A stretch of 64,000 bases of DNA from Dehalococcoidia bacterium. GTDB taxonomy: Bacteria; Chloroflexota; Dehalococcoidia; Lucifugimonadales; Australimonadaceae. Location: positions 2,020,339 through 2,084,338 of the forward strand of contig OZ220477.1 in NCBI GenBank assembly GCA_965116015.1. The letters are read 5' to 3'. Positions 1 through 13,264 of the stretch are shown here, one piece after another. The notes under the pieces are model-generated. The model ran no database searches. It saw only the letters and a list, made by a program, of their open reading frames with translations, and had not been told where the DNA came from. A program made the translations under genes and the position numbers. Numbering within the stretch: the first letter of the stretch is position 1; each line of letters opens with the position of its first letter.

Positions 1-7
1 AACAATG

Positions 8-901
8 CTACTCTCCCTGCTGGATGCGCCGGTTTGCGATCTCAGCCATCTGCTCGTCAATCTCGAACCCGACGAACTCCCTGCCTTCTGCGAGGGCGGC
101 AACGCCAGATGTGCCGCAGCCAGCGAATGGGTCGAGCGTCAAGCTGCCTGAAACGCTGAATATGCGAATAAGGTGACGGCACAAATCCACGGGCTTCGTC
201 GTCATATGCTGGTGCCGCTCCCTCGGTTTCGGGACAGGCATCAGTGTGCCGGGGAACATATCAGGTTGAACGACAGGATTCGATACATCAATCAGACCTG
301 TCTCGTGCTCTAGCCAGTTCTCGATGAATGTTCCCGCCTTCGGAGCCTGCGCCAGCACGATAATCTCCATCTGCGGGCGTAGCTGGGGAGTCTTGCGACC
401 ACCTAGCTTACGGATGATCTCGGACTTCTCATCTTCAGACAGCGCCATCTTCCGTACGAAGTGCTCTTGGGAGAAAGCCTTCGCTTGCCCGCTGTACTGC
501 CAAGCAAGCATGTCCCGGATTTCGAACCCCGCCGACTCAATCGCCATAGCCGTCCGATGCGACAGCCTGGGCTGCGCGAAGCAGAGGAAGAATCCGCCCG
601 GCTTGAGCACACGCATCAGTTCCTCAGAGATGGGGGTCAGGAACTCCTGTAGCCGTACGCCCTGCTTGGGATCGAACTTCATCCCAACGGGGAGGCTGCC
701 TATCACCCCTGCGTTCTTCACCCTGCCCCAAAGCCGCTCGTGGTTCCACTCGTCGCCCATCCCGTCAATGAAGTACGGGGGATCGGTGATAACCAGAGAC
801 ACCGAGTTCTCAGGTAGCGAAAGCAGCCCCAACCGGCAATCCATCGCCTGTATGCGCTGACTCTGCTCAATCAGCGCGTCACGCCCCATCATCGTCGTCA
901 T
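8..901 (-). CDS. DNA methyltransferase, beta-class N4-C/N6-A type
   Basis: 297-aa ORF. Motif IV 'VITDPPYF' lies near the N-terminus and the AdoMet motif 'DPFAGCGTSGVAA' near the C-terminus. Confidence 0.8.
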   Translation of the reverse strand: MTTMMGRDALIEQSQRIQAMDCRLGLLSLPENSVSLVITDPPYFIDGMGDEWNHERLWGRVKNAGVIGSLPVGMKFDPKQGVRLQEFLTPISEELMRVLKPGGFFLCFAQPRLSHRTAMAIESAGFEIRDMLAWQYSGQAKAFSQEHFVRKMALSEDEKSEIIRKLGGRKTPQLRPQMEIIVLAQAPKAGTFIENWLEHETGLIDVSNPVVQPDMFPGTLMPVPKPRERHQHMTTKPVDLCRHLIRIFSVSGSLTLDPFAGCGTSGVAALAEGREFVGFEIDEQMAEIANRRIQQGE

Positions 902-1101
902 GACTTTCTCCTACGTTTCTTCTTGCCCCGAAGCAGTCGGTCAACGTCCTCCTTTGGTATCCGCACTACTCGCACTGGCAATGCCGCACGAGTTAGTTCG
1001 CCTCGCTTGAGCAGCCGTCGCACCGTAGGTTGCGACACCCTGAGAATCGCAGCCGCCTCTGCAACTGTCAACACCTTATTCGACTCTTCTGGTTCTCTCA
1101 T
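898..1101 (-). CDS. Excisionase/MerR-type helix-turn-helix DNA-binding protein
   Basis: 67 aa with 'LTVAEAAAILRVSQPTVRRLLKRGEL', a typical excisionase-family HTH. Overlaps the methylase start by 4 nt. Confidence 0.7.
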   Translation of the reverse strand: MREPEESNKVLTVAEAAAILRVSQPTVRRLLKRGELTRAALPVRVVRIPKEDVDRLLRGKKKRRRKS

Positions 1102-1245
1102 ATCCTCTACTATGCTCTGATGGTTCTTTGTAGTCTCTAGTATTCATAAATGCTCTAAAAGAGTCAATAGGTATCACATATGTCCTTGACTATTCTGCTG
1201 AGTCATGGTAGAGTGGGACGAAATGACCCAGCCCTAGAGGTGAAC

Positions 1246-2190
1246 ATGGCGCAATGCGGTCCAGGTCGGTATGAGCGAAAGGGAATCAGCCTGAAAGAAG
1301 CAGTGAAGCTTGCGGCAGACAACGCCGCAGCTGAGCAGTGGTTCGAGAGCGTTCGCTGGCCTGACGGCGTACGATGCCCACGCTGCGATGGAAGCAACAT
1401 CCTCGAACGCAAGAACCGCAAGCCGATGCCCTACAAATGCCGATCCTGCAACCGCAACTTCTCGGTCAAGGTGGGAACAGTGATGCAGGCGAGCAAGATC
1501 CGCTACGGCGACTGGTGGCTCGCCTGCTACCTGCACTCCACGAACCTCAAGGGCGTGTCCAGCATGAAGCTGTCGCGCGACCTCGGACTCACCCAGAAGC
1601 ACGCGTGGCACCTGCTCCACCGCATCCGCAAGGCTTGGGACGATGGCAGCACCCCGCGCTTCGACGGAGAGGTCGAAGCCGATGAGACCTACATCGGGGG
1701 CAAGGAGCGGAACAAGCACGAGTCGAAGAAGCTGCGCGAGGGGCGAGGCGCAGTCGGCAAGGTCGCAGTCGTCGGCGTGAAAGACCGCGATACCGGCATG
1801 GTCAAGGCAAAGGTCGTTCCGTCAACCGACGCCCGCACGCTACAAGGATTCGTCGAAGAAGCCACTGAGCCTGAAGCCACCGTCTACACCGACGAGGCGC
1901 GTGCGTATCAGGGGATCAACCGCCAACACGAGGCGGTCGCCCATAGCGCGAAGGAGTTCGTGTACGGGCATGCCCACACGAACGGGATCGAGAGCATGTG
2001 GTCGATGATGAAGCGCGGCTATATGGGCGTGTACCACCACTGGAGCGCCAAGCACTGCCAGCGGTATGTTGACGAGTACGCCGGACGGCATAACGCCCGC
2101 CCGCTCGACACCATCAAGATACTGGCGCGAATCGTAGTCGGGATGAATGGCAAACGCCTGACTTACCCCCAGCTCATCGGCACGGTATAA
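1246..2190 (+). CDS. IS1595-family DDE transposase
   Basis: N-terminal zinc ribbon 'CPRCDGSN...CRSCNRNF'. 'EADETYIGGKERNKH', 'VYTDEARAY' and 'NGIESMW' match the DDE_Tnp_IS1595 pattern. ATG at 1246 is preceded by AGAGGTG; the track ORF starts at 1180. Confidence 0.85.
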   Translation: MAQCGPGRYERKGISLKEAVKLAADNAAAEQWFESVRWPDGVRCPRCDGSNILERKNRKPMPYKCRSCNRNFSVKVGTVMQASKIRYGDWWLACYLHSTNLKGVSSMKLSRDLGLTQKHAWHLLHRIRKAWDDGSTPRFDGEVEADETYIGGKERNKHESKKLREGRGAVGKVAVVGVKDRDTGMVKAKVVPSTDARTLQGFVEEATEPEATVYTDEARAYQGINRQHEAVAHSAKEFVYGHAHTNGIESMWSMMKRGYMGVYHHWSAKHCQRYVDEYAGRHNARPLDTIKILARIVVGMNGKRLTYPQLIGTV

Positions 2191-2215
2191 TGGGGGCAGT
2201 ACGCAGAGTGAAGGA

Positions 2216-2419
2216 GTGATGAGAGTGAATTTCCTAGCGATATCGTGGGGCGTGATTCTCGTGGGCATATTCTTAGTGCTGGCATATGGGGTGTTCACTT
2301 TTCATAGTGTCGGAGTGCCTGCGGTTTTGACGCAACTGCTTGGTGCTTACCTCATGGTTCCTTTCCCGCCCGCTGCGGCTGTAGTCGCAGTAGAGACTCC
2401 TCGCAGGATTCGGATGTAA
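2216..2419 (+). CDS. Small hypothetical membrane protein (two hydrophobic helices)
   Basis: 67-aa ORF with two hydrophobic stretches. No recognisable motif. Confidence 0.3.
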   Translation: MMRVNFLAISWGVILVGIFLVLAYGVFTFHSVGVPAVLTQLLGAYLMVPFPPAAAVVAVETPRRIRM

Positions 2420-2431
2420 GGGAGAGCACTG

Positions 2432-3073
2432 ATGGCTAATCGATTTGCTGCGACATCCCCGGATTACCCGCTCAGCATAAGCAGACTCGAAACTCGCATC
2501 GGGTCAGATCCAGCCAAGAAGGGATGGTATGAGGTCTCCTCCAAGCACCAGCGAAGAGCTAATCAGTTCCTGAAAGCTACACGAGAGCTTGCGCAGAAGA
2601 GGATACTAACGGCTGGCGAGCGCATGCGCGTATCCAACAACGCGTGGGGAGCTCTGTCCCAAACCGTCAAGGCTATCGCGGCATTGCACGGATGGACTGT
2701 AGTGGGGCCTGAGTCAACAAAGAACTTTGTGAGAGAACTTGGGCGCCGAGCGAAAGACCCAAACATCAGTTCAATGATAGGCGGTATCTATGCGCTGCAC
2801 GAGAATTACTATGCGGATCACTCGCTTGAAGCGGAGGTGCGAGAGGCTCCCCACAATACCGCCGCATTGATAGACCGCCTTTGGGATGCTGCGCCAAGTC
2901 TCGAAAGCGGGAAGAAACCTGATGGCGCACGAGACATGCAGCAACGGCGGATTTTCAAGGAGAATCACACGCCTCACCAGAGAGCGAGGGTTCGCAATGA
3001 CCTGCGAGCGAAGAGTAAGCAAGAGACAAGGCGAGCCATACCGAGTGTGTTCCGCTCCCCACGAGTGCGGTAA
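2432..3073 (+). CDS. Hypothetical protein, possibly PaREP1/HEPN-like; distant paralog of 11796-12434
   Basis: 'AWGALSQTVKAIAALHGW ... LHENYYAD' parallels 'VWGVAAHAVKKIAAERGW ... AHSNYYDD' in the other copy. Both are ~212 aa with basic tails. Confidence 0.5.
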   Translation: MANRFAATSPDYPLSISRLETRIGSDPAKKGWYEVSSKHQRRANQFLKATRELAQKRILTAGERMRVSNNAWGALSQTVKAIAALHGWTVVGPESTKNFVRELGRRAKDPNISSMIGGIYALHENYYADHSLEAEVREAPHNTAALIDRLWDAAPSLESGKKPDGARDMQQRRIFKENHTPHQRARVRNDLRAKSKQETRRAIPSVFRSPRVR

Positions 3074-3104
3074 TTGCCAGAGAGCGAAAGGACAAGTGAT
3101 GTAA

Positions 3105-3434
3105 ATGGCAACACTAGAAGAAAATCTGACGACAGCAGCTGATGCCGCAAAGAACTTGGGAGATTGGCTCGACGATAGAGAGGTATATATAACGAAGGAT
3201 GTTCATCGAGCTATAGCAATGCTGCATTCTAGCCTGGTAGATGCAATGAATAAAGTACAATCAGGAGAGATGGAACAGGCACTAGATATTATGCGACCCA
3301 CGGAAGTTCTAGCTGGTGTAATCGAGTACGTTGTAATGTACTCCCCCGACGAAAGAATGGGTGAAGAAGTAAAAGACTTCGCTACCAGAGCATTCCTAAC
3401 TGCAAGTACAGCCAGACATCAACTGGGGTGGTAG
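3105..3434 (+). CDS. Hypothetical protein
   Basis: 109-aa ORF in a visibly AT-richer stretch. No motif recognised. Confidence 0.4.
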   Translation: MATLEENLTTAADAAKNLGDWLDDREVYITKDVHRAIAMLHSSLVDAMNKVQSGEMEQALDIMRPTEVLAGVIEYVVMYSPDERMGEEVKDFATRAFLTASTARHQLGW

Positions 3435-3455
3435 TTTCGACATCTGCCGCTCAAC

Positions 3456-3480
3456 GCGTGTCATTTGGGATATAATCCCC
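3456..3480. repeat. Transposon terminal inverted repeat, copy A (right-end orientation)
   Basis: GCGTGTCATTTGGGATATAATCCCC is identical to 12510-12534 and is the reverse complement of 5062-5086. Confidence 0.9.
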
Positions 3481-3534
3481 AAATAAAGATACCAAATGAA
3501 TTGCAGGGCTGGGAAGATCTTTCCATAGAAGAAC

Positions 3535-4491
3535 GTGCCCCAGCTCTATCAGAGTGCCTCGCGGAATATGGGATTCCTGACACTGAGTGGAGGGGAGATA
3601 CTAGTCCCGATTGATGGACAGCATCGTGCAAAAGCGCTTGGTTTCGCCATGACCGGCACTAATAGCGACGGGAAATCCATCCCAGGCATAAAGGGCAACA
3701 CCGCGCTTGCCGAAGACTACGCGCCTGTTATACTGATGCGATTCAATGGCCCAGGGGTGCGTCGAATATTCAACAAGATCAATCGATACGCCAGAGCCAC
3801 ATCAAAAGGACAGAACATCATCACGGACGACGATGACTCTCTCGCTGTCCTCACACGAGAATTGCTTGGCGAAGATGGCCTTATCCCTGCCAGACTAGTG
3901 CGGATTGACGCAAACACGCTCACCGCAAAAGCTCCTGAATTCACGACGCTCGCCACGTTTTACGAAGCCAATATAGCTATAGTACTTGGACTTGGACTAG
4001 AGGGTCCAGGCAAACCGCAAGGCATGAATGACGGGAAGAGAGAAGTTGCCACAGAAGCCGCACGACGTATATGGGAAACTCTTCTCCAGCGCGTTGACCT
4101 CTTCTCCGCGGCTTTGGCGGACACCACGGAGCGGGGAGACGGCGCGCGCATCAGAATTCGCGAAGAAACACTGCTCGGCAAACCCATTGGGCAACTAGCT
4201 CTGGTCCGCGCCTTTATGGAGATGCGCGAACGCTGTGCTGGGATTCACGAGACAACCCTTTGCGACCGCCTTAACCGCATCGACTGGAGCATCGACGCCG
4301 ATCTCTGGAGGGGCGTACTCGTGGCCCCGAATGGTCGCGTCCTCGCTGGCAAGACCACCGTAAACAGGGCAGCTATATTCATTGCCCACCTCGGCGGCGT
4401 CCAGCTAACAGCTGGAGAGCGCGAGACGCTCCTCGAAGCAATCCACGGCGAAGACTGGCGTAGCCACCAGCTTCCCAATCCCGTGGCGTAA
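3535..4491 (+). CDS. DGQHR-domain (DndB-like) protein, probably 5'-truncated or degenerate
   Basis: 'ILVPIDGQHRAKALGF' occurs only ~27 residues from the ORF start. In-frame stops lie at 3484 and 3526. The transposon end is 55 nt upstream. Confidence 0.6.
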   Translation: MPQLYQSASRNMGFLTLSGGEILVPIDGQHRAKALGFAMTGTNSDGKSIPGIKGNTALAEDYAPVILMRFNGPGVRRIFNKINRYARATSKGQNIITDDDDSLAVLTRELLGEDGLIPARLVRIDANTLTAKAPEFTTLATFYEANIAIVLGLGLEGPGKPQGMNDGKREVATEAARRIWETLLQRVDLFSAALADTTERGDGARIRIREETLLGKPIGQLALVRAFMEMRERCAGIHETTLCDRLNRIDWSIDADLWRGVLVAPNGRVLAGKTTVNRAAIFIAHLGGVQLTAGERETLLEAIHGEDWRSHQLPNPVA

Positions 4492-4549: not shown

Positions 4550-5062
4550 ATGGTCCTCCCTCCTCCAAGTGGCTCTCCCTCCGCCGCGGCTTACTTATAC
4601 CGCTGCATTGCGTTAACCAGCCTTGCACTCGTCGCGCTTGCTCTAACGCTCGCTGCCTGCGCGCAGCTGACTCCCACGCCAACCCCCGCTCCTACCTCTA
4701 CCCTCACGCCCACGCTGCCCCCGACTCCTACGCTCTGGTGGAATTCGCTCCAAATTTCCACGCCCGAGTCGACTCCCGCGCCAACACCAACTCACACCAC
4801 CGCGCCGACTCCCACGCTTGCGGCAACCCCCACACCCGCGCCAACCGCTACGCCTACGCCGGTGCCGGACTTACCCCCTTCGCAAGCAGCCTTCACCTTT
4901 GACTTGAAAGAACTGGTGACTGCTTACGAACAAAACAAAGTGCTTGCCAATACGCGTTTGCGTTTCCTTGAAAATGGCTTGCAGCCTGTCACTACTAGTG
5001 GTTTCGTCGCGGACATCGAACAATTTTACTTCGAGCTTCATCCTGAAGAAGGCATGTTTTAG
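4550..5062 (+). pseudogene. 5' fragment of a lipoprotein/trypsin-like serine protease gene split by transposon insertion
   Basis: Signal peptide with lipobox 'LTLAAC', a Thr/Pro-rich linker, then the first half of an OB-fold-like domain. The ORF ends in a TAG created at the transposon junction. Confidence 0.8.
5054..5061. repeat. 8-bp target-site duplication ATGTTTTA (left)
   Basis: Identical direct copy at 12535-12542, immediately outside the opposite terminal repeat. Confidence 0.85.
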
Positions 5063-5088
5063 GGGATTATATCCCAAATGACACGCAG
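5062..5088. repeat. Left terminal inverted repeat
   Basis: GGGGATTATATCCCAAATGACACGCAG is the exact reverse complement of 12508-12534. Confidence 0.9.
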
Positions 5089-5119
5089 CCTGAGCGATGC
5101 GCACGCTCCTGCGTCCGGG

Positions 5120-5797
5120 CTAGGGGTTGCTGGCTACAGCGTATTGGTTGTAGCCGAGGCCGCGAACGTGCGGCTCCCGGTGGAGCAGATTGCGCAGGCG
5201 CCCTAGCTCCGCTGCGTCCCAGCCCATCGCTTCCGCGACCGCCTCGTCCCACAGACGCCGCACCTCGCATTCCCCGTCGCGGAACTGCGGGACGATCGTC
5301 TCCCGCGTACGCTCCCAGCAGTCCGCAAGAACTTGGCGGATGCGGTCATCCTTGATGTCAGGAACCCTCAGATTGCCCGCCTCCGTCGTGCTGTAGATGG
5401 GGAAATTGATTTTCCTTCCAGGGTGTCGCATCAGCTGAAGGCGGCCTGCTGTTGAGTTGATGAATACGGCGAGCGCTTTCGCTTCGGTGGGCGATAACCC
5501 GCTTACCGGCATCCATCCGTTGCCGACATAGCACTCGTCGCTCGCGACTGCGGTCAGGCGTGCGGTTCCCGTGTCTTGCCCAGCCGTCATTAGCAGGTAT
5601 CCGGCCTTTAGCAGGATATTATCGACTTCGGGGTAGGAGCCGCCGCTGGCTCGCCGGATGGTCTCGTTGCGGTTCTTGGGGATCCAGTGCTGGTCGGGTT
5701 GGCTCTGTATCCTCGTTTGTCCATCAGCGCTTTTGGACTTCAAAATCGGGAAACTGCTGGAATCGTGGGCGGTTGCCCGTTTAAAAGAACCGCGCAA
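5120..5797 (-). CDS. Target-recognition-domain-like module, in frame with the upstream Type ISP ORF
   Basis: 225 aa with 'AKALAVFINSTAGRLQLM', the xLNS-type motif seen in methylase specificity domains. Same reading frame as 5816-10075, separated by TAG plus 6 codons. Confidence 0.55.
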   Translation of the reverse strand: MRGSFKRATAHDSSSFPILKSKSADGQTRIQSQPDQHWIPKNRNETIRRASGGSYPEVDNILLKAGYLLMTAGQDTGTARLTAVASDECYVGNGWMPVSGLSPTEAKALAVFINSTAGRLQLMRHPGRKINFPIYSTTEAGNLRVPDIKDDRIRQVLADCWERTRETIVPQFRDGECEVRRLWDEAVAEAMGWDAAELGRLRNLLHREPHVRGLGYNQYAVASNP

Positions 5798-5839
5798 AAG
5801 GCGGCCTGTCTCATCCTAATGAGACAGGCCGCCTTTTGC
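5794..5839 (-). other. Perfect 20-bp-stem hairpin with the Type ISP stop codon in its 6-nt loop
   Basis: Arm 5794-5813 pairs perfectly with 5820-5839. The TAG (5816-5818) lies in the loop. On the minus strand the hairpin is followed by CGCGGTTCTTTTAAA. Confidence 0.85.
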
Positions 5840-8800
5840 CATAGGCTGCAAACCTGCATCGTTGGCGAATCCAAAAGCGGCTTCAGCTAGCTCAGGAGAG
5901 CGCCAGACTGCTGGAGTCCAATCACCATCCTCGATGCGCTCCGCTGGCCACTCAGAGACCTCGCCCCAGCCATGCTCTAGGAGACCGCCTTCGCAGCGTG
6001 TAAGGCAATCGTGCAAGTCCGCTGCTTCATTATTGTCGGATGGCCACCTGTCGAGTTGAATGAATCGAGTGGGGGCCTGATGCTCGCCGCGCCTCTTGGC
6101 AACGATGATGCTCTCGTTAATCTTGACGTGCTGGCTGAGATTGATCTGTCCGGGCAAGTGGCAAGTGAGAACGTCGCTAATGTGGTAGCGCTGGGCTAGC
6201 GTACGCCGTGTAACCGATGCAGACGTTGCTGTCATGGCAATGGTTGGGTGGACCATCGCGAGAACGCTGTGCGATGAGTCCAAGCACTTATCCGCCAGAG
6301 CCACGAACAAGGGCGCTATCGAGTTTTTATCAGCGAAATCTCCCATATCCCTGTCGTTACGGACGAGAGTTTCCTCCATGGTGTCGGCTCGCGACCGCAA
6401 TGCCTGCTGCATTTCTCTAGGGAACTTTTCGCCCATCTTGGCGCGATTAGTGAACGGCGGATTCATAATGACAATGCGGGCGTCTTTGGCGGCGTCCACG
6501 GCGTCTTCCAGTTCGACATCGTCGCGGGGGTCCCACACCTGCTTCGACTTGATGGCCTCGTCCGGCAAGTCCAATTCGCCGACTCTGGGGAGAAGCTCCC
6601 TTTGGCCTAGCAGCTCCAGCGTGCCGGTGAACACCCTTGCGGAGTCATGCGGGGACGGCCCGTAGGGCATCAGGCGCAGCCCCATCCGCCGGTAGCGAAT
6701 CTCGTGGTTGCCCGCCGTCAGCTGCGACGCCGCCAATTGCAGCGACACAGGGTTGATGTCGAGTCCCTTGATAGTGTCCTCGACGGCGAGCTTCTGCAAC
6801 GCGGCTAGCTTCTCCTCGCTGGCGCCCTGCGCTCTGGCGCGGCGCTTCATCTCGGCGAGCATAGCCGCCAGCAGCGTTCCGCTGCCGCAAGCCAGGTCGA
6901 CAATCTTGTGCGCCTTCCAGACTTCAGGGTCGCTCCAGTCCACGTCGCCGCAGGCGTCGAGGGTAAGGCTTGCGGCGATGAACGCCGCCGTTGGCCGCGT
7001 GAAGAACGCCCCGTCGCTCGCCTGATTCCCCATCACGCGGTTGAAGAGCGGCCCTGCGTGGTCAGCGCCCATATCAGCGTAGGTTTCGGCGATGCGCTCC
7101 GCCTCCGCCGCGATGTGCCACAGCGCCCGCTCCAGCCCCGCCAGCTTTCCCGTGTCCTCGGCAGCCTGAATGGCCTTGATCGCAGGATCTAGCACTGCCT
7201 TGAAGTCGCGGCTCATAATCTCGTTCCATTCCCGAAGGAGCCGCCGGACGACGTTGACATCGTTCTTGACGCTCTCCAGGGGGCTTACGCCGGAGATCCA
7301 GCGTCCGCTGGCGATGCGCTGGTGGAGCATTGCGGCGTTCATCATCAGCAGCGCGGCGATAGTGCAGCCGTCGGCCTGCTTGTTGCGGCTCTCCGTCTTC
7401 AGGTTGTCGAGTTGGAAGTGGGCGTCCAGTGCGTTCGACAGGCGGTCTTCGCGCAGATGCCGCGCCGCCTCCCCGACGCCCGCTTCGAGGATGTTCAGAT
7501 CGCGCATCACCCGATTCGTGCGCAACCCCGACTTGGAGAGCAAGTTCACGATGATGGCGTCAGTGAGGTTTGGTGAGGGTGCGGGAACTGATGAGCAGTG
7601 TTGCTTCTCCGCTCCGGCGAGTAAATCGAGTAAGCGCTGAGCGTTGCTCTCTGCGACATCCTCGGTAGTACGCTTGACGCGAGGCGGCAAGCGTATGCCG
7701 GCGTCTTCGTTGATCATTTTCTTGGCTTTGTCGATAGTCTTCTCGATGTTCAACTGTCCCGGTGCGCCGTCCGGTCCGGGATTGTCGCGACCGACGCTGT
7801 CAATGCGCGTCTCGACTTCTCCGCCGTCGTTCACCTTCGCGGTGATGATGGCCGTCGGAATCAGCGGCGTGTCTTCGGAGCCGTAGTCGGTTTCTGGATC
7901 TTCGGTTTCCCGCGCATAATCGTCAAGAGGCGTGAGAGTGCCGGGATAAGTCTGCTGCCCCTTCGCGATGGCCTCGGCGGTTTCTTGCGCTTCCCCTGGC
8001 TTGCCAGCGTGCACCCAAGTCTGGATTTTCGTTTCCGGAGTCGCAGTAGCGACGACGGTGGCTTCCTCTTCCGGTTCGGGAGGCAGGTACACCTTCATCA
8101 AGTGCCTTATCTCGTCTTCAATGCGGCTGTCGTGAGCGCGCAGCGCCCGCAGGATCTGCCCTAGCTCCTGCCATCCGTCTTGCGGCCCGCTGGCGGCCAA
8201 CCACTGCTCGGCTTCCGCATTTGGGGGAAAGACGATAGGGCAGATGATGTACCCCATCTCCTTGCCTTGCGCGCTGCGCATAACGCGCCCCACGGCCTGT
8301 ATGACGTCGATGGGACTCTTGCGCGGCTCCAGGAACGCCACCGCGCTGAGGGACGGCGCGTCCGTGCCCTCCCCAAAGATGCCAACGTTGACGATGCCGT
8401 GCGGGTTCTCCCTGTCAGCGTTCGCCAGCCTACTCTTGGCGTTCTCCCGAGCGGCGACGTTGCTGGTCGCGTCCAAGTGCTCCAGCGTGTACTGCGCTGC
8501 GGCGGGCGCTCGCGGAGTTGCCTCTAGCCGTCCCCTCAGCCACTCCCTTACCTTGTCGGTCTGGAGGTGCCTCGCCATATTCTTCGATTTCTCGACGGTG
8601 TTCATAAAGGCGATGCAAGACTTGATGGACACGCTGTCGACCTCGTTGCTCTGCGTGGCTCCGCCCATTGCCAGCGTGAAAGCCAGCCCGCGGAGAAAGT
8701 GCGTGGTCGTGAGCGACTGCCGCCCCTCGTTCGTGGCGTCCGAAGCCAGCGCGTTTGCCGCTTCGTACGCTTCGAGGTCGTTTACTCCGAGGGCGATGAT

Positions 8801-10075
8801 GCGGTAGTCGGAGAGCCACCCGTTGCTGACCGCCTCCTTATAGCTTCTACGGTACAGCTCAACTCCGAAGACGGTTGCGTCGTCCATACTCCGCACGACC
8901 CAATCCTCTTGCTTGTGGCGCTGCTGCTCTTTGGCGTCGTACACGCGCGGCGTAGCGGTCTGATAGACGCGGTATGTGGCGGGGAATCTGCCGTTGTCGT
9001 GGCAGATGGTGAAGTCGCGCAGCTGCTTCTCCAACTTCGGCATGCGGCGCAGACCCGCCGTGCGGTGCGCTTCGTCGGCGATGAGGACAGCGGCGACGGC
9101 TCCGGACGCGACCAGCGCTTCGCCTATCTTGTGGCTGCTCTGATAGGTCCCGAAGATGACGTTGACTCGTTCGCTGCTCTGCCCTGCGCGTATCCAGTCG
9201 GCAATCTCCCCTGAGTCGGTGGTTACCTTGCCTTTCACCTCAGACGCGCTGACGTAGCTTGCGTCCAGCGTGGGGTCGGCGGCGCGGTCCAGCGAACTCT
9301 CCTTAGGGGCGACGGTTGGATCGGAGCACACGGCGAGCGCACAGATGGACTTGCGAGCGTTCTGCAAGTACTCGCGCCGTATCTGGGCGACAAGCGCTAT
9401 GGAAGGGCATAGCACGACAGCCAGCTCTCCCTGCTGGGTCAGCTCCTCGATGATGCGCAGGGAGATGCGGGTCTTGCCCGTGCCGCAAGGAAGGACGATC
9501 TTCCCGCGAGCCTGTCCTGCCGGCAGCCCGCCGCTATCCGACTGTACGTGCTCCTTGAGGGCGTTGACGCTCTCCTCCACGGCCTCGTTCTGCATGCACT
9601 GCAGAGTTTGGCGGGGCGGGTTGCCGTCGTCGTCGCGCGCGGCGTCCGGGTCGCAGTGAGGGCAGTACTCAGCCTGCTCGACGAGCGGCTGGGCGAGAAG
9701 GTCGGCGTGGATGTTGACGAGCTTGAGTTGCTGCGCGGCTACAGACAAGCCCTGCTTGGCTTCGCTGCTCAGCTGATTGGCGCCGTTGGTGACAAGCCAG
9801 CGCTCCGCCCAAATCGGCGCGCTGGCGGCTGCGGTGAACTTGTCCAGCTCGCCTTTGTGGATATCGTCGCCCTTGCCAGAGGCATCAAGCTTCCGCGCCT
9901 TGCACTGGATGGCTATGTACTGATCGCCGCGTTTGGCGACGGCATCGATGCCGACATCCGTTCTGGTGGATTCTGGGAAACGCCCTGTCCGTTCGGGCCA
10001 GTCGCCCCAGAGCCAGCACTCCTCGATGTCCCAGTCCTTGATGTGCGGCCCTGCCTCGACGACGAGGTTCTCCAA
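5816..10075 (-). CDS. Type ISP-like restriction-modification enzyme (Mrr-like nuclease + SF2 helicase + gamma-class N6-A methyltransferase)
   Basis: PD-(D/E)xK-like 'DVGIDAV...IAIQCK'. Helicase motifs 'CGTGKT', 'IADEAHR', 'QTATP', 'QAVGRVMR'. Methylase motifs 'DLACGSGTLL' and 'IMNPPFT'. TTG start. Confidence 0.8.
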   Translation of the reverse strand: MENLVVEAGPHIKDWDIEECWLWGDWPERTGRFPESTRTDVGIDAVAKRGDQYIAIQCKARKLDASGKGDDIHKGELDKFTAAASAPIWAERWLVTNGANQLSSEAKQGLSVAAQQLKLVNIHADLLAQPLVEQAEYCPHCDPDAARDDDGNPPRQTLQCMQNEAVEESVNALKEHVQSDSGGLPAGQARGKIVLPCGTGKTRISLRIIEELTQQGELAVVLCPSIALVAQIRREYLQNARKSICALAVCSDPTVAPKESSLDRAADPTLDASYVSASEVKGKVTTDSGEIADWIRAGQSSERVNVIFGTYQSSHKIGEALVASGAVAAVLIADEAHRTAGLRRMPKLEKQLRDFTICHDNGRFPATYRVYQTATPRVYDAKEQQRHKQEDWVVRSMDDATVFGVELYRRSYKEAVSNGWLSDYRIIALGVNDLEAYEAANALASDATNEGRQSLTTTHFLRGLAFTLAMGGATQSNEVDSVSIKSCIAFMNTVEKSKNMARHLQTDKVREWLRGRLEATPRAPAAAQYTLEHLDATSNVAARENAKSRLANADRENPHGIVNVGIFGEGTDAPSLSAVAFLEPRKSPIDVIQAVGRVMRSAQGKEMGYIICPIVFPPNAEAEQWLAASGPQDGWQELGQILRALRAHDSRIEDEIRHLMKVYLPPEPEEEATVVATATPETKIQTWVHAGKPGEAQETAEAIAKGQQTYPGTLTPLDDYARETEDPETDYGSEDTPLIPTAIITAKVNDGGEVETRIDSVGRDNPGPDGAPGQLNIEKTIDKAKKMINEDAGIRLPPRVKRTTEDVAESNAQRLLDLLAGAEKQHCSSVPAPSPNLTDAIIVNLLSKSGLRTNRVMRDLNILEAGVGEAARHLREDRLSNALDAHFQLDNLKTESRNKQADGCTIAALLMMNAAMLHQRIASGRWISGVSPLESVKNDVNVVRRLLREWNEIMSRDFKAVLDPAIKAIQAAEDTGKLAGLERALWHIAAEAERIAETYADMGADHAGPLFNRVMGNQASDGAFFTRPTAAFIAASLTLDACGDVDWSDPEVWKAHKIVDLACGSGTLLAAMLAEMKRRARAQGASEEKLAALQKLAVEDTIKGLDINPVSLQLAASQLTAGNHEIRYRRMGLRLMPYGPSPHDSARVFTGTLELLGQRELLPRVGELDLPDEAIKSKQVWDPRDDVELEDAVDAAKDARIVIMNPPFTNRAKMGEKFPREMQQALRSRADTMEETLVRNDRDMGDFADKNSIAPLFVALADKCLDSSHSVLAMVHPTIAMTATSASVTRRTLAQRYHISDVLTCHLPGQINLSQHVKINESIIVAKRRGEHQAPTRFIQLDRWPSDNNEAADLHDCLTRCEGGLLEHGWGEVSEWPAERIEDGDWTPAVWRSPELAEAAFGFANDAGLQPMAKGGLSH

Positions 10076-10475
10076 CCACCTGCCGTCGGTGCTATGAGGG
10101 TTCTTCTCGTCCAGAATGCTGAGCGCCCACTCGATAACGCTCTTCCGCTAGCGCACCTACTCCGCTACGCCCCCCCCCAGTCCCTCCTAAATCCCAAATT
10201 TGGAGCGCACGACAGGCGGCAGAATTGCCCGCTGCCACTATTGTGCCTTCCTTTCGGTATCAGAGGACTTGGGCGGAGTGGAGAGCAGCGCCGCTGCAAT
10301 GTCCCTGACTGGTCGGTTTATTGGCTCTGGGAGCGGATCAGTCGGGTGTTCGCGCTTCTTACTTGCAGGCTTACGCTTCTCCATGATGCACCTCTTTCTT
10401 GCTGCTCGGTATGCGACCTGGAGGGCTTTGCGCATTCCCGCAGTAGGTGCCCCTGTCGCCCCATCATCGTCGTCA

Positions 10476-10670
10476 TTACTTTCTCCTACGCTTCTCGCCT
10501 AGGAGTAGTCGGTCAACGTCCTCCTTTGGTATCCGCACTACTCGCACTGGCAATGCCGCACGAGTTAGTTCACCTCGCTTGAGCAGCCGTCGCACCGTAG
10601 GTTGCGACACCCTGAGAATCGCAGCCGCCTCTGCAACTGTCAACACCTTATTCGACTCTGGTTCTCTCAT
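10476..10670 (-). CDS. Excisionase/MerR-type HTH protein (copy 2)
   Basis: 64 aa, near-identical to 898-1101 apart from a one-codon indel and a divergent C-terminus. Confidence 0.7.
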   Translation of the reverse strand: MREPESNKVLTVAEAAAILRVSQPTVRRLLKRGELTRAALPVRVVRIPKEDVDRLLLGEKRRRK

Positions 10671-10806
10671 ATCCTCTACTATGCTCTGATATTTTCTATA
10701 GTATGCATAAATGCTCTAAAAGAGTCAATAGGCATCACATATACCCTTGACTATTCTGCTGAGTCATGGTAGAGTGGGGCGAAATGACCCAGCCCTAGAG
10801 GTGGAC

Positions 10807-11751
10807 ATGGCGAAATGCGGTCCAGGTCGGTATGAGCGAAAGGGAATCAGCCTGAAAGAAGCGGTGGAGCTTGCGGCGGACAATGCCGCAGCTGAGCAGT
10901 GGTTCGAGAGCGTCCGATGGCCTGACGGCGTACGATGCCCACGCTGCGATGGAAGCAACATCCTCGAACGCAAGAACCGCAAGCCGATGCCCTACAAATG
11001 CCGATCCTGCAACCGCAACTTCTCGGTCAAGGTGGGAACAGTGATGCAGGCGAGCAAGATCCGCTACGGCGACTGGTGGCTCGCCTGCTACCTGCACTCC
11101 ACGAACCTCAAGGGCGTGTCCAGCATGAAGCTGTCGCGCGACCTCGGACTCACCCAGAAGCACGCGTGGCACCTGCTCCACCGCATCCGCAAGGCTTGGG
11201 ACGATAGCAGCACCCCGCGCTTCGACGGAAAGGTCGAAGCCGATGAGACCTACATCGGGGGCAAGGAGCGGAACAAGCACGAGTCGAAGAAGCTGCGCGA
11301 AGGGCGGGGCGCAGTCGGCAAGGTCGCAGTCGTCGGCGTGAAAGACCGCGATACCGGCATGGTCAAGGCAAAGGTCGTTCCGTCCACAGACGCCCGCACG
11401 CTACAAGGATTCGTCGAGGAGGCCACTGAGCCTGAAGCCACCGTCTACACCGACGAGGCGCGTGCGTATCAAGGGATCAACCGCCAGCACGAGGCGGTCG
11501 CCCATAGCGCAAAGGAGTTCGTGTACGGGCATGCTCACACGAACGGGATCGAGAGCATGTGGTCGATGATGAAGCGTGGCTATATGGGCGTGTACCACCA
11601 CTGGAGCGCCAAGCACTGCCAGCGGTATGTTGACGAGTACGCCGGACGGCATAACGCCCGCCCGCTCGACACCATCAAGATACTGGCGCGAATCGTAGTC
11701 GGGATGAATGGCAAACGCCTGACTTACCCCCAGCTCATCGGCACGGTGTAG
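10807..11751 (+). CDS. IS1595-family DDE transposase (copy 2)
   Basis: 314 aa with only 4 substitutions relative to 1246-2190. Confidence 0.85.
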   Translation: MAKCGPGRYERKGISLKEAVELAADNAAAEQWFESVRWPDGVRCPRCDGSNILERKNRKPMPYKCRSCNRNFSVKVGTVMQASKIRYGDWWLACYLHSTNLKGVSSMKLSRDLGLTQKHAWHLLHRIRKAWDDSSTPRFDGKVEADETYIGGKERNKHESKKLREGRGAVGKVAVVGVKDRDTGMVKAKVVPSTDARTLQGFVEEATEPEATVYTDEARAYQGINRQHEAVAHSAKEFVYGHAHTNGIESMWSMMKRGYMGVYHHWSAKHCQRYVDEYAGRHNARPLDTIKILARIVVGMNGKRLTYPQLIGTV

Positions 11752-11795
11752 TGGGGCGGTACGCAGAGTGAAGGAGTTGATTGAGTTAACCCAAG

Positions 11796-12434
11796 CTATC
11801 GCGGGTTCCCTTTGCGCGTTTTTGGATAGCGAGCGCGGGCAGGTCGCTGCTTGCTCCGAGATTCTCCTGTGTAGTTGCTGACAGCATCCCTAATGTTTAT
11901 CTTTAGAAGGTTGCGGTAGTCCTTGAATGCCGGGATCTCCAAATCACTAGGCACACCTCTATGCATCTTGCCTAGAGCGGAAACGAAATCACGGGCGATA
12001 GACGCATTGGCCTCTAGCATCGACGGTGTCATCACATCGTCATAGTAGTTGGAATGCGCCGCCTGCGCTGTATTCCAACCAGCGGAGACGACCTTTACAG
12101 TTTCAGCCGCATCAGGCGCGCCAGTCTCACTATATTCAGACGCCAACCACTCCACGACTGCGGAGAGACTTTGATGCGATTTAGTCGGCCATCCCCTCTC
12201 TGCCGCAATCTTTTTGACAGCATGCGCCGCAACTCCCCACACCATCTCGGACGCAGCGATGCGCTCCTTGCGCGTCCGCAACTCCTTGCCGAGAATCTGT
12301 AGGTTCTCAACGTGATACTCGTGCGGAGATTGAGGTTCGCCGATGATGTATGCAGCGACTTCCTTGTCGAGATAGTCTAAATCCTCAGGACGCTTATCCG
12401 CAGCCGCTTTGAGCTTCGATTCTAACGTCGTCAT
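11796..12434 (-). CDS. Hypothetical protein, possibly PaREP1/HEPN-like; paralog of 2432-3073
   Basis: Shares motifs with 2432-3073. Lies between the transposase and the right terminal repeat, as in the other element, but on the opposite strand. Confidence 0.5.
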   Translation of the reverse strand: MTTLESKLKAAADKRPEDLDYLDKEVAAYIIGEPQSPHEYHVENLQILGKELRTRKERIAASEMVWGVAAHAVKKIAAERGWPTKSHQSLSAVVEWLASEYSETGAPDAAETVKVVSAGWNTAQAAHSNYYDDVMTPSMLEANASIARDFVSALGKMHRGVPSDLEIPAFKDYRNLLKINIRDAVSNYTGESRSKQRPARARYPKTRKGNPR

Positions 12435-12507
12435 CGCCCAGTACCCTCATAGTCGGATATTCAGCCTACTCTACAACTATCACACGCTAGGCTATTTGTC
12501 AAGCGCA

Positions 12508-12534
12508 CTGCGTGTCATTTGGGATATAATCCCC
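12508..12534. repeat. Right terminal inverted repeat
   Basis: CTGCGTGTCATTTGGGATATAATCCCC. Confidence 0.9.
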
Positions 12535-13264
12535 ATGTTTTATGGTAGCGGTGTGGATTGCTACTACGAAGACACGAGGACAGCCCTCGCTATTACTAGA
12601 AATCAGCTAATTACGGTGAGTGGCCGCATCAGCGGGTTCGAGTATGGCGATATCGTCATGTTCATGTGCGGTATTTGGGGGGTGGACTTAGAAAGGAACC
12701 AGGCACTGACAGCAACTCAGACAAGAAGCAGTGTTGTCAGAGTGCACTGTGAACCTGGCAACGACCTACTCAAATCTCTGCTGCCTGTTTCCTATGGAAC
12801 AGGAATAATTATAGACAAAATGCGAGGACTAGTGCTAACAGCGCATCATGTTGTTGAAGACTGCGGGCGCATCGCAGTAGAGCCACTGCCGGGCGGTGCG
12901 AGGATGGCGGCCACGCTCGTGAAGCGCTGCGCCTCTGTCGATCAAGCCTATGTACAGGTAGAGCGAGATGGGCTATCGCGCCTTGATGCTCCTCAGCTCT
13001 ACGCTGCAAGCGCACCGGCTCAGCGCGACCAAGCGGTCTACTTCTGGGCCTGGGGTTCAGAAGGATTCCGGTGGCAGAGCGGGATTAGTGAATAACGCGC
13101 CAACTCTCTTCCAGAGAGACTACCGAGGTGTAGACGCCTACGCTGTTCCGGGAGATTCCGGATCTCCTGTGTTCAACGAGTTTGGGCACTTGCTTGGGAG
13201 CCTCACTAGAAGCAACCGCTCAGACGAAGTCACCTACAATGCTTGGGATTGCAAGCCACCCTAA
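12535..13264 (+). pseudogene. 3' fragment of the split lipoprotein/trypsin-like serine protease gene, with an additional frameshift
   Basis: Starts with the TSD copy. His ('LTAHHVV') and Asp regions are in the frame of ORF 12409-13095. The Ser motif 'GDSGSPV' is in the frame of ORF 12968-13264, with the shift near 13080. Confidence 0.75.

Follow-up and report, generated by a model that had tools for sequence, protein, structure and literature searches.

Can a simple insertion sequence (IS) move a defense gene of several kilobases as a single unit? This question is raised by a locus in a 64,000-nucleotide stretch of a Dehalococcoidia genome (the window), for which a first-pass annotation had proposed an IS1595-family passenger transposon with a restriction-modification (R-M) gene as cargo. 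The family, the ends, the target duplications, and an empty site all agree with the core of that proposal. We estimate the probability at about 85% that positions 5062 to 12534 (7,473 bp) are an IS1595-family transporter IS (tIS), the best explanation of the whole, which includes a broken cargo gene and an exchange of cargo.

Transposase, core, and termini

The gene at 10807 to 11751 (plus strand) encodes a 314-aa DDE transposase with a zinc ribbon at its N terminus. It matched NF033547 (180 bits; cutoff, 75), PF12762 (7e-37), and PF12760 (5.8e-8), and its homologs on plasmids are all annotated as "IS1595 family transposase," which bears out the proposed IS1595 type. Eighteen relatives show no variation at C44, C47, C65, and C68 (CxxC...CxxC), D146, D216, E249, and K256. 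Within IS1595, the zinc ribbon is missing only in the IS1016 group (PMC8101967). The start codon was assigned to ATG 10807 rather than to TTG 10747, which overlaps a -35-like hexamer. Elements of the ISNwi1 subgroup have ends of the form ggnnatTAT in ISfinder and a transposase with a DDEK+ER4 signature. The ends GGGGATTAT and GGGAATTAT fit this pattern, and the transposase has E249-x6-K256 and E277-x3-R281; the element is a candidate ISNwi1 member. Divergent from the transposase gene is a gene for an HTH_17 (excisionase/MerR-type) DNA-binding protein (10476 to 10670, minus strand; PF12728, 8.6e-14; PADLOC mad1, 8e-8). It is part of a conserved core, and its copy in a second element of the window (copy A; see below) is 98% identical.

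The left terminal inverted repeat (IRL; 5062 to 5088, plus strand; GGGGATTATATCCCAAATGACACGCAG) and the right one (IRR; 12508 to 12534, minus strand) are reverse complements at 27 of 27 positions, exactly as first described, and the same 8 bp, ATGTTTTA, lie directly outside them in direct orientation (5054 to 5061 and 12535 to 12542), also as described. Both repeats start with GGGG, in line with the GG with which IS1595 ends begin. When up to 3 mismatches were allowed, the 27-mer was found at 3 sites in the window, compared with 0 in 100 dinucleotide-preserving shuffles; the third site (3454 to 3480; 25/27) is the right end of copy A. The layout reads IRL, left cargo, HTH_17 gene (minus strand) divergent from the transposase gene (plus strand), right cargo, and IRR. 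As predicted from the sequence, one zinc-ribbon DDE transposase would act on the 27-bp repeats and move everything between them as one unit.

A Type ISP-like R-M gene split by a stop codon

The left cargo is an R-M gene on the minus strand. Its 5' part (5816 to 10075; 1419 codons) encodes, in order, an Mrr-like nuclease, an SF2 ATPase, a linker, a gamma-type N6-adenine methylase, and the start of a target-recognition domain (TRD), with the motifs D..QCK (GIDAV...IQCK), GTGKT, DEAH, QAVGR, DLACGSG, and NPPF. Its 3' part (5120 to 5797), in the same frame, encodes the C-terminal 225 aa of the TRD. Pfam matches to the 1419-aa product were Mrr_cat_2 (1.5e-12), ResIII, and Helicase_C. Residues 18 to 682 matched the PADLOC model REase_MTase_IIG (1e-98), and residues 20 to 659 matched LlaBIII (4xqk; 1.6e-54) and LlaGI (5ffj; 1.9e-53). 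Type ISP enzymes have an N-terminal Mrr-like nuclease, typically of the D-QxK form (PMC3874165).

The methylase half gave a different picture from that of LlaGI and LlaBIII. Motif I (DLACGSG) precedes motif IV (NPPF), and the Pfam and NCBIfam methylase matches were weak, with matches to the gamma-type adenine methylase fold at an E value of 1e-10. No similarity of the C-terminal 721 aa to LlaGI or LlaBIII was detected by profile search. An AF2 model of these 721 aa matched enzymes composed of a methylase and a TRD over ~660 to 700 columns, with BpuSI, M.BseCI, CamA, and PglX ranked ahead and LlaBIII in 50th place (E value, 9e-6). Judged by its modeled fold (BseCI/CamA/Type IIG/PglX-like), the methylase/recognition half is of a different lineage from LlaGI and LlaBIII, and homology to characterized Type ISP enzymes is confined to the nuclease-ATPase half. 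The designation of the gene as Type ISP therefore holds for the nuclease-ATPase half and fails for the methylase-TRD half. The gene resembles those of LlaGI and LlaBIII in its nuclease-ATPase-methylase-TRD order within one frame of ~1,650 codons and in its nuclease-ATPase sequence (E value, ~1e-54). It differs from them in its methylase-recognition half, which has no detectable sequence similarity to theirs, and in being split by a stop codon and located on a chromosomal tIS rather than on a lactococcal plasmid. Taking Type ISP to mean ATP-dependent translocation, collision-dependent cleavage between head-to-head sites, and hemimethylation of an asymmetric site, we would expect by analogy that the intact enzyme methylated an asymmetric site and cut unmodified DNA after ATP-driven translocation.

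The gene had been described as a complete single-polypeptide enzyme. It is not complete: an in-frame TAG (5816 to 5818, minus strand; codon 1420) removes 225 aa from the end of the recognition domain. The supposedly separate TRD-like ORF, rejected here as a gene of its own, is the in-frame continuation beyond this single stop codon; the rest of the earlier gene list (transposase, HTH protein, 1419-aa ORF, and PaREP1/HEPN ORF) stands. Each of the 120 homologs listed (51 to 70% identity) can be aligned both before and after the stop codon, with 118 of them extending to at least full-length residue 1627, and continuity across the stop was checked residue by residue in 10 aligned homologs.

The TAG sits in the 4-nt loop of a perfect, terminator-like palindrome of 46 bp (5794 to 5839; 21-bp arms; RNA fold, -44.8 kcal/mol). 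Both the palindrome and the TAG are present in independent contigs from sequencing run X1. The perfect palindrome was found in none of the homologs L014 and L015 and the ortholog from run X3, which represents a related strain: L015 has just a short quasi-palindrome at the stop site, and the upstream arm reads differently in the X3 ortholog. The palindrome was most likely made by a template-switch (quasi-palindrome correction) mutation, in which the downstream arm would have been copied onto the upstream arm. Quasi-palindrome mutagenesis is known from the genetics of Escherichia coli and phage T4. The present case shares with it the change of an imperfect repeat (that of the relatives) into a perfect one, the replacement of one arm by the complement of the other, a nearly unchanged length, and several clustered base changes in one event; it differs in that the event and its direction are read here from sequence comparison alone. 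Since the truncated product ends 225 residues short of a full recognition domain, restriction and modification have probably both been lost, a loss that is probably harmless to the host.

It would matter if the R-M cargo worked as it stands, because the tIS would then mobilize a working defense system. The 1419-aa and 225-aa products might act as subunits, or the TAG might be read through or bypassed, with the palindrome serving as an attenuator or terminator, a role that its hairpin shape would suit. A possible TTG start codon lies 6 codons past the stop, making a separate, reassociating 225-aa product conceivable. Apart from the TAG, the ~1,650 codons are open, with all catalytic motifs intact, and related genes elsewhere are also split, at homopolymer runs, a hint that on/off switching is common in the family. 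We nevertheless consider a functional cargo unlikely. The stop interrupts a folded recognition domain, with every listed homolog aligning on either side of it, and the upstream arm replaces a stretch that is normal coding sequence in L014, L015, and X3, which is the pattern of a mutation and not of a conserved signal. On the preferred reading of a broken gene, the locus illustrates how one mutation, in this case apparently templated by a palindrome, can safely turn off an R-M enzyme made as a single chain.

Insertion as one unit into a protease gene

The element interrupts a gene whose 5' half (4550 to 5061, plus strand) encodes a PT-rich, secreted/lipoprotein-like N terminus and whose 3' half (12543 to 13095, plus strand) encodes a trypsin-like peptidase domain. 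When 4550 to 5061 was joined to 12543 to 13095, the flanks formed a coherent 354-aa ORF with a Trypsin_2 domain, colinear across the junction with uninterrupted homologs (identity, up to 66%). A search for an empty-site allele found one in the related strain: a run X3 contig (654x) joins 5052 to 12534, skipping 7,481 bp, and contains a single ATGTTTTA (C+ATGTTTTA makes up the 9 ambiguous letters). Because this gap equals 7,473 + 8 bp, what was inserted is the entire unit, and the comparison shows insertion as one unit. The unit would have landed in an AT-rich octamer within a chromosomal gene for a secreted trypsin-like protease, duplicating ATGTTTTA. No excision or circle junction was found among the assembled contigs.

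Besides the R-M gene, two passengers unrelated to transposition lie inside the repeats. One is a basic ORF of 65 aa between the HTH and R-M genes (10238 to 10435, minus strand), with no match in Pfam and no counterpart in copy A. The stretch from 10092 to 10456 is unique to the 7.5-kb element; in the X3 contig that holds the 5' end of the R-M ortholog, homology stops at 10091, and the depth is zero over 10238 to 10800. The other, which forms the right cargo, is a PaREP1/HEPN-superfamily ORF of 212 aa (11796 to 12434, minus strand), whose own PaREP1 match (2.5e-4; PF05942, 21.4 bits; cutoff, 24.4) is below the gathering score. In an alignment of 34 sequences, consisting of this ORF, the one in copy A, and 32 family members, 31 matched PaREP1 (best, 7e-18) and 6 matched HEPN.

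A neighboring sibling and related elements with other cargo

The second element, copy A (1 to 3480, plus strand; left end beyond the window), had been overlooked in the first-pass annotation. Its right end at 3480 lies 1.6 kb upstream of the 7.5-kb element. It contains an N6/N4 DNA methylase gene (8 to 901, minus strand; PF01555), an HTH gene (898 to 1101, minus strand), a transposase gene (1246 to 2190, plus strand), a PaREP1-like ORF (2432 to 3073, plus strand), a 109-aa ORF (3105 to 3434, plus strand), and an IRR (3454 to 3480; 25/27), followed by its right 8-bp target duplication (3481 to 3488; AAATAAAG). An X1 contig contains the other end of copy A, followed by CTTTATTT, the reverse complement of AAATAAAG. 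The methylase of copy A looks like an orphan. Positions 882 to 2223 are 95.9% identical to the core of the 7.5-kb element (10457 to 11785), with 18 synonymous and 4 nonsynonymous differences between the transposases; the HTH-transposase core is under purifying selection. The transposase depth (~1.7x) indicates only two sibling copies in the source genome. Copy A is thus a copy with different cargo of the kind that was sought: it has the same ends and core and other cargo on both sides, which indicates that cargo has been exchanged at the junctions beside the core and the repeats.

The R-M gene also has a relative outside any tIS, 85 to 93% identical, in the sister strain (X3), as judged from patchy alignments of contigs in a single other sample. 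This location suggests a fairly recent acquisition of the gene from the host lineage.

Among other genomes, we delimited 14 related elements (2.2 to 6.6 kb) with GGGRATTATAT ends. The 8-bp duplication, taken at the outset as an IS1595 signature, is perfect in 13 of them and matches at 7 of 8 positions in one, in agreement with ATGTTTTA here; these duplications are 78% A+T. All 14 exceed the length of a bare transposase gene and carry passengers, among them an N6_N4 methylase with HNH (L003 and L004), a C5 methylase with a 297-aa partner (L011), an N6_N4 methylase (L019), and DUF805 (L007). DNA methyltransferases were present in 6 of 12 distinct elements sampled (Chloroflexota, Acidobacteriota, Gemmatimonadota, Latescibacterota, and Alphaproteobacteria). 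One Dehalococcoidia genome holds four identical cargo-bearing copies of 2,245 bp at different sites with different duplications.

These elements bear on the alternative that a short IS was inserted first and that the R-M and PaREP1 genes entered between its ends later by recombination in situ. The duplication and the empty site alone cannot date the arrival of the cargo, sibling copies do swap cargo while keeping ends and core, and the R-M gene has its close relative outside elements in the sister strain. Later entry is still improbable: passengers inside the repeats in all 14 relatives, up to a size of 6.6 kb and with duplications, make cargo-bearing movement the norm of the clade; the four identical 2,245-bp copies each bear their cargo; and no recombination scar or second repeat pair was found within 5062 to 12534. 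An assembly artifact, with repeats collapsed or misjoined between two IS copies, might be suspected from near-identical cores 9 kb apart in an apparently metagenome-derived source genome, but it is very unlikely, given that independent X1 short-read contigs run through both element-flank junctions and the cargo without a single difference, at an even depth of ~230x, equal to that of the flanks, and that the exact X3 empty site differs by precisely the element plus 8 bp.

Comparison with known systems

Transporter ISs are a recognized feature of the IS1595 family (TnCentral preprint, 10.1101/2021.05.26.445724), as described by Siguier, Gagnevin & Chandler 2009 according to papers that cite it (PMC3129680 and PMC11891212). 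The present element shares with them a single transposase with zinc ribbon and DDE domain, GG-starting repeats, an 8-bp duplication, unrelated passengers, and, as reported for ISNha5, an HTH passenger of regulator type. It differs in its cargo, a ~5-kb Type ISP-like R-M gene and a PaREP1/HEPN gene. None of the other fully delimited elements examined (15 in all) reaches its 7.5 kb. With IS1595 members of up to ~7.9 kb in ISfinder, this length probably stays inside the range already known.

R-M units that resemble transposons, with inverted repeats and 8-bp duplications, were described by Furuta, Abe & Kobayashi 2010 (PMC2853133), namely, a Type IIG enzyme with S and a transposase-like gene (COG3677) in Neisseria gonorrhoeae and a Type II system in Xanthomonas oryzae. 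Likenesses to these units include inverted repeats (~26 to 65 bp), the 8-bp duplication, and an empty site in a relative, and the N. gonorrhoeae unit also combines a damaged R-M gene with a transposase-like gene. The element described here differs in having an intact transposase that clearly belongs to IS1595 and is under purifying selection, in its cargo, which is Type ISP-like and neither Type II nor IIG, and in its adjoining sibling with other cargo. The view that such cargo is unusual for IS1595 is weakened by these published units, by the recognition of tISs in the family, and by the methyltransferases in half of the relatives sampled.

As a natural record of how a simple IS moves a defense gene, the locus is unusually complete, with exact ends, a duplication, the empty site of a sister strain, a sibling that shares ends and core but carries other cargo, and a close relative of the cargo gene outside elements. 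A broader reading, which we offer tentatively and consider doubtful at present, is that the IS1595 clade with GGGRATTATAT ends constitutes a modular, cross-phylum vehicle specialized for DNA-modification and defense genes that swaps cassettes at fixed junctions and can capture and move resident chromosomal ones, such as the R-M gene described here. Current concepts are unchanged, and the element is a good specimen for researchers of IS elements or defense gene mobility. Through it, Type ISP-like enzymes join the restriction systems known within IS-like transposons. It also suggests an IS1595 clade that often carries DNA methyltransferases, which bears on how defense and epigenetic genes may reach distant bacteria without plasmids or phages.

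Insertion of the main element as one unit

The terminal 27 bp of the 7,473-bp main element (window positions 5062-12534; hereafter, copy B) were perfect reverse complements of each other (5062-5088 GGGGATTATATCCCAAATGACACGCAG versus 12508-12534), and the octamer ATGTTTTA abutted both ends (5054-5061 and 12535-12542), exact to the base as the first-pass annotation had claimed. The ends would fit the ISNwi1-subgroup consensus. With up to three mismatches allowed, the 27-mer end was detected at three sites in the window and at none in 100 dinucleotide-preserving shuffles. The third site (3454-3480; 25/27), which was unnoticed in the first-pass annotation, is informative and belongs to the sibling element described below.

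The in silico removal of 5062-12542 proposed in that annotation joined 4550-5061 in frame to 12543-13095. The resulting 354-aa protein had a PT-rich N terminus and a Trypsin_2 domain, and uninterrupted homologues (identity, up to 66%) were colinear with it and gap-free over the junction. An empty-site allele, a further check suggested there, was present in public sequencing run X3 (same study, other sample), in which a 654× contig linked window position 5052 to 12534 and skipped 7,481 bp; nine letters (C plus ATGTTTTA) were assignable to either side. This contig shows the precise unoccupied site, in which the octamer occurs once, and is decisive for insertion as a unit. The flanks of the empty-site strain were approximately 99% identical to those of the window. 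Run X1 contains the window sequence, and its independent short-read contigs spanned both junctions with 0 differences at approximately 230×, equal to the flank depth. The X1 contigs, which cannot show rare variants, contained no joint indicative of an empty site or of excision. The PT-rich repeat of the interrupted protease gene differed in length by 18 bp, in frame, between the X1 and X3 strains at window position 4817 (and 4697-4700).

Transposase and accessory genes

The transposase (314 aa; 10807-11751) matched NF033547 (180 bits; cut-off, 75), PF12762, and PF12760, bearing out its assignment to the IS1595 type. TTG 10747 was rejected as an alternative start because it overlaps a -35-like hexamer. 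Across 18 aligned relatives, no variation was seen at the four cysteines of the zinc ribbon or at D146, D216, E249, and K256. There were 397 plasmid homologues, and the best 25 with a gene table were all annotated as "IS1595 family transposase." A scan of JGI metagenomes with the transposase as the query returned only three loci, which were distant. A third IS1595 transposase (protein P0122), encoded outside the window on the same 2.39-Mb source contig, was mosaic, with a C-terminal half that nearly matched the transposases of the window and a diverged N-terminal half, which suggests recombination between elements.

An HTH_17 (excisionase/MerR-type) gene (10476-10670) is divergent from the transposase gene, and the two have promoter-like sites facing each other. 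The product of the ORF at 11796-12434 belongs to a small PaREP1/HEPN family, for which a search of representatives gave 149 clusters; PaREP1 was matched by 31 of 34 aligned sequences (i.e., two window ORFs and 32 members). The idea that the PaREP1-like gene accompanies this IS clade as a conserved partner was rejected, given that BLASTP hits to it were limited to the two window copies. A basic 65-aa ORF (10238-10435) had no match.

Passengers of related elements

We delimited 14 related elements around transposases that were 40 to 70% identical to that of copy B. Their hosts were Terriglobia, Gemmatimonadota, Vicinamibacterales, Latescibacterota, Longimicrobiales, Dehalococcoidia, Paracoccaceae, and other MAGs. 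Each had terminal repeats (20 to 24 of 24 positions matching) starting with GGGRATTATAT. The 8-bp duplication expected of other copies with such ends was perfect in 13 elements and matched at 7 of 8 positions in the remaining one; these duplications were 78% A+T. One Dehalococcoidia chromosome contained four identical copies of a 2,245-bp element at different sites with different duplications. All 14 elements (2.2 to 6.6 kb) were well above the size of a bare IS, and passengers are the rule in this IS1595 clade.

N6/N4 methylase-HNH fusions were found among the passengers (loci L003 and L004), as were a C5 methylase and a 297-aa partner resembling a Type II pair (L011), an N6/N4 methylase (L019), DUF805 membrane proteins (L007), and unknown proteins. 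The Latescibacterota element (L004, 6385-12998; 6,614 bp), with 24/24 matching ends and the duplication AATGATAT, carried the methylase-HNH fusion together with a protein of 488 aa that looks secreted and several small ORFs, located on both sides of the transposase. A DNA methyltransferase was present in 6 of 12 distinct elements (the two window copies included), a hint that methyltransferase cargo is clade-wide.

The restriction-modification cargo and its interruption

The main cargo ORF of copy B (5816-10075, minus strand; 1,419 aa) encodes an Mrr-type nuclease (D...QCK) and an SF2 ATPase (GTGKT, DEAH, QAVGR), followed 3' by methylase motifs in the gamma order (motif I DLACGSG and then motif IV NPPF). 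Residues 20 to 659 were homologous to the Type ISP enzymes LlaBIII (4xqk; 1.6e-54) and LlaGI (5ffj; 1.9e-53). A profile search with the last 721 residues matched neither LlaGI nor LlaBIII. An AlphaFold model of the C-terminal half (pLDDT, 63; higher in the recognition part) matched BpuSI, M.BseCI, CamA, and PglX/BrxX at approximately 1e-10, with LlaBIII at rank 50. On the basis of these results, the cargo has the same architecture as Type ISP enzymes (defined in PMC3874165 and PMC4666363), but its methylase-recognition half comes from a lineage other than that of LlaBIII and LlaGI. The Type ISP identity given in the first-pass annotation needs one correction, in that only the nuclease-ATPase half is related to the characterised Type ISP enzymes. 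MANTIS (bioRxiv 10.64898/2026.09.23.753747) was rejected as the identity of the cargo because it is a four-gene system.

The cargo gene had been read as a complete enzyme with a separate "TRD-like ORF" (5120-5797), and neither description survived. The latter ORF (225 aa) lies in the frame of the 1,419-aa ORF, with one TAG and six codons between them, and is the 3' part of the same gene, which is interrupted by the in-frame TAG. A query spanning the stop retrieved at least 120 homologues (51 to 70% identity). All 120 homologues listed aligned on both sides of the stop (118 of them to at least full-length residue 1627), and all 10 aligned residue by residue were continuous over the stop point. 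The broken product is without about half of the recognition domain, so restriction and modification were probably both lost; that the enzyme is split yet functional appears unlikely.

The TAG, the sole in-frame stop of the R-M coding sequence, lies in the loop of a perfect 46-bp palindrome (5794-5839; 21-bp arms; 4-nt loop; -44.8 kcal/mol as RNA). The downstream arm codes for the conserved ...ETGRLL..., and the upstream arm stands where relatives have a normal, variable coding stretch. At this site, the homologous locus L015 has only CTGTCT...AGACAG and the X3 orthologue has GCAAAAGCTGTCCAGTCGCA. Given that relatives have a short quasi-palindrome here, established mutational mechanisms suggest that template-switch "quasi-palindrome correction" made both the palindrome and the stop. 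An assembly error was rejected, as independent short-read contigs carry the palindrome.

Short R-M homologues of variable length (621 to 1,262 aa) were considered as a two-gene family, and this was rejected for L014 and L015, where gene calls are broken. The breaks fall at C10-C14 and G12 runs within one reading frame (L014, ~9840-9850; L015, ~9460-9475 and ~9990-10002). These runs, which are either phase-variable tracts or long-read homopolymer errors, explain the N-terminally truncated database entries at the two loci, and homopolymer runs may be behind other short entries too.

A sibling element with different cargo

The third 27-mer site is the right end of a sibling element (copy A; 1-3480), the left end of which is outside the window. 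The cores of the two copies (882-2223 versus 10457-11785; HTH gene, intergenic region, and transposase) were 95.9% identical, and the cargo differed on both sides. On the left, copy A carries an N6/N4 DNA methylase gene (8-901), the start of which overlaps the HTH stop; on the right, a 109-aa ORF accompanies a distantly related, oppositely oriented PaREP1-like ORF. Exact-sequence look-ups with this methylase and with proteins P0121 and P0122, aimed at the left end of copy A and the DNA beyond it, matched no database entry. In an X1 contig, the matching other end of copy A was bordered by CTTTATTT, which is AAATAAAG, the octamer after 3480, in reverse complement. An 8-bp duplication (AAATAAAG) thus flanks copy A as well. 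Since 18 of the 22 nucleotide differences between the two transposase genes were synonymous and 4 were not, the coding sequences indicate purifying selection and separate histories, with no recent in-genome copying.

The right end of copy A (3456-3483) and the left end of copy B (5059-5086) form an inverted pair around a 1.58-kb stretch, and the outer ends of the two copies could in principle act as a composite transposon. Within 3481-4491, a DndB/DGQHR-like ORF (3535-4491) lacked approximately 83 N-terminal profile positions. The frame open over the copy A junction is different from that of this ORF, and the apparent truncation or frameshift of the gene therefore seems unrelated to the copy A insertion.

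Origin of the restriction-modification gene

Residence of close R-M homologues in the same type of element was rejected for the four closest or best-placed loci (L014, L015, L022, and L023), where no IS1595 transposase was beside the gene and no such repeats were found. The dominant X3 strain (i.e., the empty-site strain) had an R-M orthologue that was 85 to 93% identical over window positions 5105-10091 only, a left homology boundary just 16 bp inside the left repeat. In the contig alignments, this orthologue was not joined to the repeat, the HTH gene, or the transposase gene, which suggests that an R-M gene resident in the lineage was acquired fairly recently, as far as patchy, contig-level data allow.

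Also in X3, the 5' end of the orthologue (8858-10091) was joined via 166 nt to a 69-nt fragment (3003-3071) resembling the 3' end of the PaREP1-like ORF of copy A; here the same modules are arranged differently. Positions 5105-5146 cover the final 27 bases of the R-M gene, with its stop codon, and the next 15 bp. They had a second match with two mismatches on a 12.3-kb X1 contig of genome-like depth, possibly left over from the donor locus.

Relation to known elements

Elements of this kind are transporter ISs, which according to published descriptions occur only in the IS1595 and IS66 families (TnCentral preprint 10.1101/2021.05.26.445724; PMC3129680; PMC11891212). An R-M unit of N. gonorrhoeae comprises a damaged Type IIG gene and a gene resembling that of a transposase, with repeats of 26 bp and a duplication of 8 bp (Furuta et al., PMC2853133), and the same authors cite the IS1595 paper among reports of IS-flanked R-M systems and apparently solitary methylase genes. 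Because transporter ISs and R-M units of such structure have been published, the kind of element is already known; cargo-bearing IS1595 elements, including those with methylase or R-M genes, are on record, and copy B is less unusual than had been proposed. The central reading of copy B as an IS1595 passenger transposon holds. To this, the present analysis adds an empty site, a sibling with swapped cargo, a palindrome-templated knockout, as suggested by the quasi-palindromes of relatives, and a hint of clade-wide methyltransferase cargo.
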